51,638 bases of DNA from Pseudomonadota bacterium (GTDB lineage: Bacteria; Bdellovibrionota_B; Oligoflexia; Oligoflexales; CAIYRB01). Positions 33,963-38,879 of the stretch are shown in pieces. The stretch spans positions 1 through 51,638 of the forward strand of contig JANOTL010000200.1 in the NCBI GenBank assembly GCA_031416315.1, given 5' to 3'. Under the pieces are notes generated by a model, which saw only the letters and a list, made by a program, of their open reading frames with translations, was not told the DNA's origin and made no database searches. The translations under genes were made by a program, and so were the position numbers. The first letter of the stretch is position 1. Every line of letters starts with the position of its first letter.

Positions 33963-34397
33963 CTAATTCGGCTTCTTGAAAAGGGCGATAATCCGCCGCA
34001 CAGCAGCCCTCTGCTGCGCCGCGTCGCGCACGGCGATGAAGACCGTGTCGTCGCCGGCGACCGTGCCGACGACGCCCGGGATCTTCGCGGCGTCGATCAC
34101 GGTCGCTGCGCTCGGGGCGTGCCCCCGGCCGACGAAGATGACCACCATGTGATCGCCGACCGCCTCGACCTTGAGCTCGCTCACCAGCTGTAACTGGCTG
34201 GAATCTAGGTCCGGTAGGCGATAAGCTCCCTGAACCTTCACCGCGCCGAGCTCTGAGAGGTCGCGCGAGACGCTCGCCTGCGTCGTGTCGAAGCCCGCGC
34301 GCACCATGGCGTCGAGGATATCGGCCTGACTCACGCGCGGCGTCTTCTTCAAGAGCTCGCGCAGCTTGATCTGTCTCTGCTGTTTCTGCGGATGCAT
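33963..34397 (-). CDS. argR: Arginine repressor
   Basis: RQ..L.ELL, TQASVSRDL.ELG.VK (wHTH), GTVAGDDTVF (arginine-binding core); ATG 34397. Confidence 0.92.
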   Translation of the reverse strand: MHPQKQQRQIKLRELLKKTPRVSQADILDAMVRAGFDTTQASVSRDLSELGAVKVQGAYRLPDLDSSQLQLVSELKVEAVGDHMVVIFVGRGHAPSAATVIDAAKIPGVVGTVAGDDTVFIAVRDAAQQRAAVRRIIALFKKPN

Positions 34398-34446
34398 ATT
34401 ATCCAGAAATAATGCATAAACGACGATATATACAGCTATATACAAA
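34391..34446. promoter_or_regulatory. AT-rich divergent promoter region with ARG-box-like half sites
   Basis: ATGCATA at 34392 and 34412 (20-bp period), TATATACA at 34427 and 34437; TGCATATTATCCA is one base shorter than the canonical ARG box core. Confidence 0.45.
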
Positions 34447-34494
34447 AATTTGGGCCTGCGCTACATCCGATCTCCGAACCCACGCGAGGCCTGC

Positions 34495-35713: not shown

Positions 35714-37309
35714 ATGAGCTCCTCGAAGACCAAATACGACGCGATCATCATCGGCGGCGGCCACAACGGCCTCGTTTGCGCCGCGTACCTGGCCAAAGCC
35801 GGTAAAAAGGTGCTCGTCCTCGAGCGGCGTCACCTCGTCGGCGGCGCCGCCGTCACGGAGGAGCTCTATCCGGGATTTAAGTTCTCGGTCTGCTCCTACG
35901 TCGTCTCGCTCTTCCGTCCTGCGATCATCCGCGATCTCGAGTTGGCGAAGCACGGCATGGAGATCATCCCGCTCGAGACGGCGTACACGCCTTTGCCTGG
36001 CGATCCGGGCCTCTGCCGCTGGCCGGATTACCAGCGCTCGCGCCAAGAGATCAGCCGATTCTCTTCGCTCGACGCCGAGGTCTATCCCGAATTCTCGATG
36101 GCGATGTCGAAGATGTCGCGCTTCGTGAAGGACATCATCGACAATCCGGCGCCGGATCCGACCTCCTTCAACCCAAAGGAGCTGTTGGACATCCTCCGCC
36201 TGGGCAAGATGTTCAAGGACGAGGGCATCGACTTCCTGAACCTCCACGCCAAGCTCCTCACCATGAGCGCGGCCGACTTCCTCGACATGTGGTTCGAGTC
36301 CGACATCTTGAAGGCGCCGATGGCCGTATCCGGCATCATCGGCACCTACCTCGGCGTGCGCTCGCCGGGCACGGCCTACGTGCTTCTCCATCACTACATG
36401 GGCGAGATCGACGGCGCGTTCCGCTCCTGGGGCTTCGCAAAGGGCGGCACCGGCGCCGTCTCCAACGCCTGCGCCCGCGCCGCCGAGTCGCACGGCGCCG
36501 AGATCCGCGTCAACGCCACCGTGCAGCAGGTGCTGGTGAAAAACGGCCGCGCCTCAGGCGTCGTGATGGCCAACGGCGACGAGATCGAGGCAAAGCTCGT
36601 CATCTCGAACTGCGATCCGCACATGACCTTCAAGAAGCTCGTCGCCCAGAAAGACCTGGACGCCGACTTCATCCAGCAAATCGACCGCTACAAAATGCGC
36701 GGCTCCTCCGGCAAAGTGAACTTCGCCGTCGACCGCCTCCCACAGTTCGCCGGCCGTCCGGGCGAAGCGCATCTGCGCGGCGACATCGCCATCGGCCCTT
36801 CGATCGACTACCTCGAGCGCGCCTACGACGAGGCGAAGTACGGCGACTTCTCCAAGCGCCCTTACATTAACATGGTGATCCCGTCCCTCGTCGATCCGAG
36901 CGTCGCGCCCCCCGGAAAGCACGTGGTCTCCTGCTTCGTGCAATACGCGCCTTACCGTCTGAAGGAAGGCCCGGAGGCTTGGCCCTCGAAGCGCGAGGCT
37001 TTCGGCGACACGGTGACCGACACGATCGAGGAATACTGTCCGGGCTTCAAGAGCTCGGTCCTCTTCCGCCAGACGCTCACGCCCTGGGACCTGGAGAAGG
37101 ACTTCGGCCTCACCGAAGGCAACATTTTCCACGGCGAGCTCAGCCTCGAGCAGCTCCTCTTCCAACGTCCCGCGGCCGGTTGGTCGCGCTACAAGACGCC
37201 GGTGAAGGACCTTTGGATGTGCGGCTCCGGCACGCATCCCGGCGGCGGTCTCATGGGCGCGCCGGGCCATCTCGCGGCGAAAACCATCTTGAAGTCGGGG
37301 GACCTCTGA
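35714..37309 (+). CDS. Phytoene desaturase-like FAD-dependent oxidoreductase (PYROXD2-like), copy 1
   Basis: IIGGGHNGLVCAAYLA, GGAAVTEE, GTAYVLLHH.MG, GNIFHGE, CGSGTHPGGG.MGAPG. Confidence 0.9.
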   Translation: MSSSKTKYDAIIIGGGHNGLVCAAYLAKAGKKVLVLERRHLVGGAAVTEELYPGFKFSVCSYVVSLFRPAIIRDLELAKHGMEIIPLETAYTPLPGDPGLCRWPDYQRSRQEISRFSSLDAEVYPEFSMAMSKMSRFVKDIIDNPAPDPTSFNPKELLDILRLGKMFKDEGIDFLNLHAKLLTMSAADFLDMWFESDILKAPMAVSGIIGTYLGVRSPGTAYVLLHHYMGEIDGAFRSWGFAKGGTGAVSNACARAAESHGAEIRVNATVQQVLVKNGRASGVVMANGDEIEAKLVISNCDPHMTFKKLVAQKDLDADFIQQIDRYKMRGSSGKVNFAVDRLPQFAGRPGEAHLRGDIAIGPSIDYLERAYDEAKYGDFSKRPYINMVIPSLVDPSVAPPGKHVVSCFVQYAPYRLKEGPEAWPSKREAFGDTVTDTIEEYCPGFKSSVLFRQTLTPWDLEKDFGLTEGNIFHGELSLEQLLFQRPAAGWSRYKTPVKDLWMCGSGTHPGGGLMGAPGHLAAKTILKSGDL

Positions 37310-37310
37310 C

Positions 37311-38879
37311 ATGACCGCCACCACCGCCGTTCACGCGCAAAAATACGACGTCTTGGTGCTCGGCTCCGGCCACAACGGCCTCGTCTGCGCTGCGTCTCTG
37401 GCGAAAAAGGGCCGCAAGGTCCTCGTCGTCGAGCAGCGCAAGATCCTGGGCGGCCTCGCCGCCGGCGAGGAGTTCCATCCGGGCTTCACGTCGCCCGGCT
37501 TCTTCCATGACACGACGAAGCTCCGCCGGTCCGTCGTCTTCGAGCTCGACCTCGTCGGCAAATTCGGCCTTAAGCTCCGCACCGAGGAAGCGCCCGTGTT
37601 CGCGCCGGAAGCAAAGGGCAGAGGCCTCCTCCTCTGGCGTGATCCGAATCGCGCCGTCGAGGATCTCGCGCCGCACTCGCAGAAGGACGTGCAGCGCTAC
37701 GGCGAGTATCGCGCCTTCATCAACCGCATCGCGCCCGTCTTGAAGCGCGTCTTCGACGACGCGCCTCCCGACGTGGTCAACATGAGCTTCCCGGGCGTTT
37801 GGGACCTGATGAAGACGGCCGTCTCGCTCCGCCTCCTCGGCAAGGGCGACATGATGGAAGTGCTGCGCATCGCCCCGATGTGCGTCGCAGACTGGCTCAA
37901 CGAATGGTTCGAGACGCCGGTTCTGAAGGCCGCGCTCGCCGGCCCCGCGATCCATCACGAGTTCGTCGGACCGTGGTCGCCCGGCACGAACATGAACCTG
38001 CTCCTTTCCGAAGCCTTCGCCGAGCTTTCCGTCGTGGGCGGCCCGCAAGCCCTGGCGAAAGCGCTCGTCGACTGCTGTAAGGCGCAGGGCGTCTCGTTCC
38101 GCACCGAGGCGAAGGTTCGATCGATCATCATCGAGAACGGGACGGCGAAAGGCGTCGAGCTCGAGTCGGGCGAGAAGCTCCTGGCGCAACAAATCGCCGC
38201 CTCCTGCGACCCGAAATCCCTCTTTCTGAAGCTCGTGGCGCCCGACAAGATCGCCCATCGCTTCGAGACCAACATCATGAACGTCCGCTCGCGCGGCGTC
38301 ACCGCGAAGATCGACTTCGCCCTCGACCGCTACCCGGAGCTTGCGGGCCGGCCGTCCCTGAAGGCCGAGTACATCCGCACCGGTGAATTCTTCGACCAGA
38401 TGGAGCGCGCCTTCGACCACGTGAAGTACGGCGAGGCTTCCACGCACCCGATCTTCGACTGCTACGTTCCGACCCTCGAGGCGCCGGAGCTCGCGCCTGA
38501 AGGCAAGCACGTGATGTCGGTGCTCGTGCACTTCGCTCCTCACGCTCTCCGCGGCGGCTGGAACGAGGCGCAGAAGGAGACTTTGACGGCGAACGCGATG
38601 GCCGCGCTCGCCCAGTCTTTCCCGGGCTTGAGCGCCGCGGTGATCGCCAAGCGCCTCACGACGCCGGTCGAGCTAGAACGCGATCTCGGACTTTGGGGCG
38701 GGCATCCGCATCACGGCGAGCACGCGGCCGATCAACTCCTCGTCCGCCCGACGCCGGAGTGCTCGCGCTACAAAACGCCGGTGGACGGCCTGTTTCTTTG
38801 CGGTAGCGGCGCGCACCCAGGCGGGGGCATCACCGGCGCTCCGGGCCAGCTCGCGGCGCGAGCGATGGTCTCCGTCTGA
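37311..38879 (+). CDS. Phytoene desaturase-like FAD-dependent oxidoreductase, copy 2 (divergent)
   Basis: VLGSGHNGLVCA, GGLAAGEE, GHPHHGE, CGSGAHPGGGITGAPG; 1 nt after copy 1. Confidence 0.9.
   Translation: MTATTAVHAQKYDVLVLGSGHNGLVCAASLAKKGRKVLVVEQRKILGGLAAGEEFHPGFTSPGFFHDTTKLRRSVVFELDLVGKFGLKLRTEEAPVFAPEAKGRGLLLWRDPNRAVEDLAPHSQKDVQRYGEYRAFINRIAPVLKRVFDDAPPDVVNMSFPGVWDLMKTAVSLRLLGKGDMMEVLRIAPMCVADWLNEWFETPVLKAALAGPAIHHEFVGPWSPGTNMNLLLSEAFAELSVVGGPQALAKALVDCCKAQGVSFRTEAKVRSIIIENGTAKGVELESGEKLLAQQIAASCDPKSLFLKLVAPDKIAHRFETNIMNVRSRGVTAKIDFALDRYPELAGRPSLKAEYIRTGEFFDQMERAFDHVKYGEASTHPIFDCYVPTLEAPELAPEGKHVMSVLVHFAPHALRGGWNEAQKETLTANAMAALAQSFPGLSAAVIAKRLTTPVELERDLGLWGGHPHHGEHAADQLLVRPTPECSRYKTPVDGLFLCGSGAHPGGGITGAPGQLAARAMVSV

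Follow-up and report, generated by a model that had tools for sequence, protein, structure and literature searches.

The DNA analysed here is a 51,638-nt stretch (hereafter the window), which is contig C200 (JANOTL010000200.1) of the bacterial genome G000. In it, an argR gene diverges from three genes, hereafter the triad, which encode a GcvT-like protein and two flavoproteins. We considered what the triad may do and whether ArgR, the arginine repressor, is likely to control it. The features of the locus are as follows.

33963..34397, minus strand: argR, with its ATG at 34397 (open reading frame and Pfam matches)
34392..34445, strand-neutral: predicted ArgR operator, a tandem ARG-box array (lineage operator model and alignment to the sister genus)
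34495..35712, plus strand: stand-alone GcvT-like folate-binding protein of 405 aa (profile and structure-database sequence matches)
35714..37309, plus strand: flavoprotein 1, CrtI/CrtO/PYROXD2-like, 531 aa (profile matches, fold prediction and conservation)
37311..38879, plus strand: flavoprotein 2, a paralogue of flavoprotein 1, 522 aa (sequence comparison and fold prediction)

The three triad genes are co-oriented on the plus strand with spacings of 1 nt, and the gap between argR and the GcvT-like gene (34398-34494) is 97 bp long and 56% AT. The segment 34392-34450 reaches 75% AT, compared with 65% GC for the 6.4-Mb genome. A contig from run X2, a separate study, is about 91% alike and bridges the argR-GcvT junction (33960-35080); therefore the junction is not an assembly artefact. 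The coordinates confirm the arrangement described in an earlier sequence-only reading of the window, namely argR, the 97-bp gap and three genes 1 nt apart. The same reading was correct in stating that arg, gcvH/P and carotenoid genes are absent: none of the arg, gcvH/P, crtB or crtY genes was found in the window, and all of these groups exist elsewhere in G000. The arg operon and a second argR lie on C16, gcvTHP on C153, a crt cluster with its own crtI on C115, and a dimethylglycine dehydrogenase (DMGDH)-like fusion on C40.

The triad is a fixed module across many phyla. Using the GcvT-like protein as the query, we compared the best 80 of 96 GTDB loci and the best 80 of 147 metagenome loci, with identities of 45-74%. 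Flavoprotein 1 was encoded next after the GcvT-like gene in 79/79 GTDB and 70/70 metagenome loci in which over 400 nt of sequence lay downstream (an automatic tally gave 78 and 67, its four "misses" abutting or overlapping the GcvT match). Flavoprotein 2 followed in 68/70 and 40/41 of the loci with more than 2200 nt downstream. The hosts include Acidobacteriota, Myxococcota, Planctomycetota, Bacteroidota and others; Shinella zoogloeoides and Rhizobium sp. SL42 are examples of carriers in culture. On alphaproteobacterial plasmids, the triad was reordered as flavoprotein-flavoprotein-aminomethyltransferase in all four loci examined, which were 4 of the top 7 among 38 records with a flavoprotein match; all four also carried a TetR regulator, a polyamine-type ABC transporter, a Rieske oxygenase and a class III aminotransferase. 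Three apparent fusions of the GcvT-like protein and a flavoprotein (P0001-P0003) were rejected as Rosetta-stone evidence, being single-contig, out-of-frame-looking stretches that are likely frameshift artefacts, and the fourth longer protein from that search (P0004) was a trimethylamine N-oxide (TMAO) demethylase, Tdm. No description of the triad was found in the literature searched; subscription papers and supplements fall outside it and could hold one. In the part available to us, bioRxiv 10.64898/2026.06.26.734754 treats Tdm/Dmm and not the triad.

The GcvT-like protein retains a predicted folate site. Residues D100, Y190 and E197, which correspond to D96, Y188 and E195 of the Thermotoga maritima protein, were invariant in 63/63 aligned rows. 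The equivalent of Arg227 of true GcvT (position 229) was Leu or Met in all 63, and the true GcvT of G000 keeps the Arg; we take the T. maritima residues and Arg227 to be the folate-site and functional residues of these proteins. Against the GcvT model TIGR00528, the score was 173, under the cut-off of 236. Since the Arg227 equivalent is lost and there is no linkage to gcvH or gcvP, we rejected the protein as a glycine cleavage T-protein. Its best match by sequence, in both NCBIfam and PDB, was the C-terminal domain of TMAO demethylase, and the NCBIfam scores were 242 bits for Tdm, 115 for DmdA and 55 for LigM.

The two flavoproteins are 35% identical to each other, with predicted folds of pLDDT 85.8 and 93.5 (flavoproteins 1 and 2, respectively). 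Across loci, flavoprotein 1 was 63-88% identical (median 67%) and flavoprotein 2 only 34-67% (median 44%), and many of the invariant polar or aromatic residues of flavoprotein 1 (S61, Y62, Q410, N470, F472) differ in flavoprotein 2. This pattern of conservation and residue loss suggests that flavoprotein 1 is likely the catalytic subunit and flavoprotein 2 a faster-evolving partner. The best PDB sequence match had an E value of 1e-20, and no close family member has been characterised. We rejected membership in CrtO or CrtI, as the cut-offs were missed widely (129 vs 238 bits for the CrtI model) and there is no crt linkage. Membership in the dimethylglycine oxidase (DMGO)/DMGDH/sarcosine oxidase family was also rejected: the DAO profile matched over the first 45 residues only, and the soxA and soxB models scored far under cut-off. 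The PYROXD2 name comes from truncated automatic Atlas cluster names and from the sequence-only reading, and serves here as a label for a putative kinship. For PYROXD2 itself, the part of PMC8777681 available to us contains no established substrate.

Next, the surroundings of the triad were searched for clues to its substrate. A total of 125 flanking proteins were scanned against Pfam, comprising 124 of the 146 first neighbours (the 22 left out were mostly near-duplicates) and one metF product. A Rieske oxygenase gene lay beside the triad in 21/80 GTDB, 13/80 metagenome and 4/4 plasmid loci; these oxygenases are closest to GbcA (below its cut-off) and also to solved demethylase and carnitine monooxygenases. 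The gene metF followed immediately downstream in 4/80 GTDB and 2/80 metagenome loci. Other neighbours encoded PotD-like or basic-amino-acid transporters and omega-aminotransferases, with a basic-amino-acid/polyamine antiporter-like gene at locus L046 and a formaldehyde-activating (GFA) gene at L080; most of the remainder were unrelated one-offs. Matches to "argH" beside six metagenome loci were discarded, as they are aspartase/fumarase-family genes at 26-27% identity. A co-oriented gene of that family directly precedes the GcvT-like gene in the related loci L067, L206, L209, L214, L216, L225 and L226.

Human PYROXD2 variants are associated with N6-methyl- and dimethyl-lysine in the part of PMC9730628 available to us, with N2-acetyl-N6,N6-dimethyllysine in that of PMC13352909, and with trimethylamine/dimethylamine in that of PMC3169529. 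Together, the neighbours and the PYROXD2 associations point to N-demethylation with capture of a one-carbon (C1) unit on folate. Methyl-lysine-type amines or related methylated omega-amines are our best guess at the substrate, and would fit better than methylarginines. G000 also encodes two Rieske oxygenases (C14:513-1622 and C7:10172-11260) with about 29% identity to those linked to the triad, and the DMGDH-like fusion at C40:40209-42662; all three could act upstream of or parallel to the triad.

We then turned to argR. The window ArgR matched both PF01316 and PF02863 above cut-off, has an intact SR motif in its winged helix and possesses the C-terminal oligomerisation domain; against TIGR01529 it scored 89, under the cut-off of 130. 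For E. coli ArgR, the part of PMC2880562 available to us gives the arginine contacts as Gln106, Asp113, Thr124, Ala126, Asp128, Asp129 and Thr130. Alignments via 3v4g, 1f9n and 1b4a showed that six of these seven are kept in the window ArgR (D102, T112, A114, D116, D117, T118), and that the Gln106 equivalent is Pro95. The arginine-binding motif, GTVAGDDT, is intact, as had been noted earlier.

The gap contains TGCAT half-sites at 34393 and 34413, 20 bp apart, and its half-site density exceeded that of dinucleotide shuffles (p 0.006). A generic single 18-bp ARG-box matrix gave p 0.08 on the gap, not significant alone; this matrix was dropped, as its matches were mostly AT-rich DNA and did not include the operator on C16. 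It was replaced by a lineage operator model trained on argH/argR-type sites of eight relatives, none from this genus, which may also pick up promoter elements. In the whole of G000, the lineage model found only two sites, C16:15579 (score 31.8) and C200:34392 (30.4), the next score being 7.9. The gap site, second in rank, is also an exact match to the operator pattern, and the gap can be aligned to the argH/argR region in the sister genus, the two sharing GCATAA...TATAC as an invariant core. In the same-genus genome G001, the operator scored 30.6 despite an ArgR identity of 66% with the window ArgR, and the triad-leader site is the sole exact operator match. The earlier description of an AT-rich gap with ARG-box-like half-sites at a 20-bp period thus held up, and we predict that the element is a genuine ARG operator. 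It overlaps the start of argR and ends 49 bp before the GcvT-like ATG; since it fills more than half of the 97-bp gap, ArgR-arginine probably represses the triad in this genus.

How did argR come to face the triad? In the sister genus, argR heads the arg operon (argR-x-argC-argD-argF-argB), with argH divergent in 5/6 loci with room; here, that divergent position is taken by the triad. In trees with 24 and 19 rows, the window argR grouped with the family ArgRs (90/99; SH 91-99), at a point where long branches meet; five long-branch rows were excluded from the 19-row tree and from a further 60-row tree. A clade of the window argR and the second argR of G000 was rejected (p-AU 0.006). By these sequence comparisons, the window argR is the family's native copy. 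The second copy is:

G000:C16:15145-15564, minus strand: C16 argR, at the head of the arg operon

It is followed by argG, an unknown gene, argC, argD, argF, argB and argH. The C16 ArgR reads GTIAGIDT, so that Asp128, an arginine contact in E. coli, is replaced by Ile, and the protein is likely unable to bind arginine normally. The argG gene of this operon is 60-63% identical to family f15 vs 38-47% to its own family, which suggests that G000 likely re-acquired the operon from another family. No argG, argH, argC or argF was found in G001, although that genome is 82% complete and the four lie in a single operon. Because the window argR groups with the family and the C16 operon resembles that of another, the native argR would have lost its arg neighbours; the triad would then have taken the argH side, and G000 would likely have regained an arg operon. 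A 371-aa gene of unknown function (G000:C16:12790-13905, minus strand) has counterparts of 46-52% identity beside argC in many relatives' arg operons.

The link between argR and the triad does not extend far. An argR gene lay beside the triad in 1/80 GTDB loci (72 with more than 700 nt upstream) and 0/80 metagenome loci (66 with), and the one case was G001. Of 152 triad leaders scored with the lineage model, again only that of G001 responded, the next score being 3.6; an unrelated leader, L017, scored on the generic matrix and not on the lineage model. The relative G011 has both ArgR and the triad, yet no operator at its triad leader (score -7.3). Among 61 genomes (G000 and 60 relatives), nine carry an orthologue of the GcvT-like gene and argR was found in three of the nine; it was not found in the carriers G009, G014, G016, G018, G029 and G038 (67-96% complete). 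The adjacency is not unique to this genome, which the earlier reading had named as a ground for its own refutation, as G001 and run X2 share it; yet it represents one genus-level event. The idea that ArgR points to the substrate of the module was therefore not borne out, as a single capture says little about it. Of the proposed ArgR control, what stands is a predicted operator positioned to affect the triad in this genus. The capture is new and limited to this genus, and the ArgR link is likely a recent regulatory capture that lies outside the definition of the module.

Two observations on ArgR elsewhere were made in passing. In G131, the genome of locus L013, ArgR is unusually expanded: a single 8.8-Mb chromosome gave seven hits to the C-terminal domain of the repressor, and none of them lies close to the triad. 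In G004 (77% complete), no argR was found, and an exact family operator pattern occurs on both strands between unrelated genes (C15:35175-35197, L262).

We tentatively propose, at slightly short of an even chance, that the triad is an oxidative N-demethylase, split over separate proteins and coupled to folate, that acts on N-methylated amino acids or amines, and that in this genus it lies behind the native argR operator and is likely repressed by ArgR-arginine. Flavoprotein 1, probably with flavoprotein 2, would oxidise an N-methyl group to an iminium, and the GcvT-like protein would capture the carbon as 5,10-methylene-tetrahydrofolate (THF). Where present, a GbcA-like Rieske oxygenase would take the first methyl off a quaternary amine and MetF would reduce the methylene-THF product. 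A split folate-linked N-demethylase had been suggested from the sequence at the outset; the folate site, the conservation of the module and its neighbours lend that suggestion indirect support.

Several observations weigh against this proposal. The closest folds of flavoprotein 1 are carotenoid desaturases (4rep, TM score 0.75, 17% identity), followed by nicotine and monoamine oxidases, and the best NCBIfam model is CrtO, at 302 bits vs a cut-off of 1000. The kinship to human PYROXD2 is a putative one, taken from labels. Some of the loci occur in both collections and many are related, which makes the independent events far fewer than the counts of loci; in particular, many Rieske-bearing triad loci belong to related Thermoanaerobaculia. 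The window locus itself has neither a Rieske nor a metF neighbour, nor any other recurring partner. On the regulatory side, the placement of the window argR among the family ArgRs was not settled in the 60-row tree, a sigma-70 scan located no promoter, and G002 has the same operator with no divergent gene adjoining. The operator may act leftwards only, as the conserved TATATA block could serve as the -10 element of argR itself.

The likeliest rival is that the adjacency is incidental: the enzymes would work as proposed, and ArgR would only autoregulate and leave the triad uncontrolled, with a further effect in trans in G000 on the arg operon of C16. Throughout the family, the operator precedes argR whether or not a divergent gene is present, 159/160 other triad loci lack argR, and the loss of Asp128 in the C16 ArgR would give the window argR a job independent of the triad. 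However, the extent of the operator within the gap and its distance from the GcvT-like ATG speak against this rival, and G001, in which argG, argH, argC and argF were not found, has its sole exact match to the operator at this site, so that no other target is visible there. We consider an incidental adjacency unlikely, though it deserves to be taken seriously. It is quite unlikely that the triad performs other C1 chemistry in which the GcvT-like protein is the acceptor, namely demethylation at S or O, or an oxidative C-N cleavage at a site other than a methyl group. The GcvT fold includes DmdA, LigM and DesA, to which matches are weak, and the lack of a close characterised flavoprotein leaves room for such chemistry; nevertheless, the Tdm score far exceeds those of DmdA and LigM, and the neighbours are amine-related.

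If in this genus the module instead salvaged arginine from methylarginines or a related arginine-pathway compound, in place of the lost biosynthetic genes, repression by ArgR would be lifted when arginine is short, and an altered pocket loop in ArgR may tune effector sensing. The window ArgR has FVGRGHAP where RTGPGHAQ is usual, and this form is common to 5/5 members of its clade; moreover, the triad stands where argH would be, argR no longer has the native arg operon at its side, and the C16 operon looks re-acquired. However, the same loop also varies in other ArgR clades, the evidence comes from a single evolutionary event, and most triad carriers lack the argR link. DDAH was not found in four of the five genomes tested (G000, G001, G009 and G011). 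In addition, the oxidation of amines by flavins depends on a free lone pair at the nitrogen, and a methyl on a guanidinium group has none to offer. Methylarginine salvage is thus rather improbable. Very improbable is that the flavoproteins desaturate or ketolate carotenoids or isoprenoids, the GcvT-like gene being a passenger: their best folds and profile matches are of the CrtI/CrtO type, but the scores are far under cut-off, the crt cluster of G000 has its own crtI, no crt genes occur among the 125 scanned neighbours, and phytoene/squalene synthase was found in only 3/9 triad carriers (67-96% complete), compared with 15/52 non-carriers.

One further gene near the triad had been remarked on earlier:

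40742-42250, minus strand: class III aminotransferase, lat-like (automatic Atlas name; no NCBIfam cut-off passed)

It does lie 1.9 kb away, close to the 2 kb first given for lat; the identity as lat is an automatic name only. The gene is present in 51/61 genomes, near-core for the order. It is on the same contig as the triad in G000 and G001 alone, and the genes that separate them differ between these two genomes. We therefore rejected it as a part of the module. A 133-aa hydrophobic open reading frame (38900-39301, plus strand) starts 20 nt past flavoprotein 2, has no Pfam match and is possibly co-transcribed with the triad; no equivalent was seen at that place in G001. Farther on, before the aminotransferase, 39480-40712 (plus strand) encodes a probable lipoprotein with an ADP-ribosyltransferase domain (PF03496, PF01129), at whose place G001 carries different genes. 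On the other side of argR, four co-oriented open reading frames (26762-31631, minus strand) have signal- or lipoprotein-like N-termini, the last of which (30429-31631) has no Pfam match.

The triad is common, yet its genes are annotated only as "phytoene dehydrogenase-like" and "aminomethyltransferase". Should it prove to be a demethylase, it would give a testable reaction to a family thought to include PYROXD2, an orphan human disease gene, and would supply a route that has been missing for the recycling of methylated amino acids. The locus also offers a clean candidate example of regulon capture: a catabolic-type module stands in the place of argH next to an intact ArgR operator, and the other ArgR of the genome no longer has an aspartate that is key to arginine binding. 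A bolder scenario, to which we give little credence, is that the genus lost its arg operon and then placed a folate-coupled demethylase of the PYROXD2 type under ArgR; the enzyme would recover arginine, or another basic amino acid, from the methylated residues that protein breakdown sets free. If true, this would be a salvage route repressed in the manner of a biosynthetic one and the first flavin-dependent way to use free methylarginines, and it would point directly to the class of substrates of human PYROXD2.

Compared with known systems, the nearest in logic are DMGO/DMGDH, sarcosine dehydrogenase and heterotetrameric sarcosine oxidase, which, like the triad, combine a flavin enzyme with a GcvT-fold folate domain that lacks the arginine of true GcvT. 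The triad differs in that its flavoproteins are CrtI/CrtO/PYROXD2-like rather than DAO-fold, form a pair of paralogues and are separate from the GcvT protein; a shared logic, in which an N-methyl group is oxidised and the C1 unit captured, is predicted. Tdm provides the best match to the GcvT-like protein through its C-terminal GCV_T domain, whereas the triad protein lacks the DUF1989 metal domain, scores 242 against a cut-off of 1100 and is partnered by flavoproteins. CrtO beta-carotene ketolase and CrtI phytoene desaturase share their fold and best profile matches with the flavoproteins, which are under all cut-offs and have no genomic link to carotenoid genes. Human PYROXD2, encoded by a single gene, is an orphan mitochondrial flavoprotein whose metabolites in genome-wide association studies are N-methylated lysines and methylamines. 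With respect to regulation, argE/argCBH of E. coli belongs to the ArgR regulon and has a divergent shared operator. The sister-genus ArgR regulon has the same repressor lineage as the window and a homologous operator between divergent genes; here, in contrast, there is no arg gene on either side of argR, and the divergent target is the triad.

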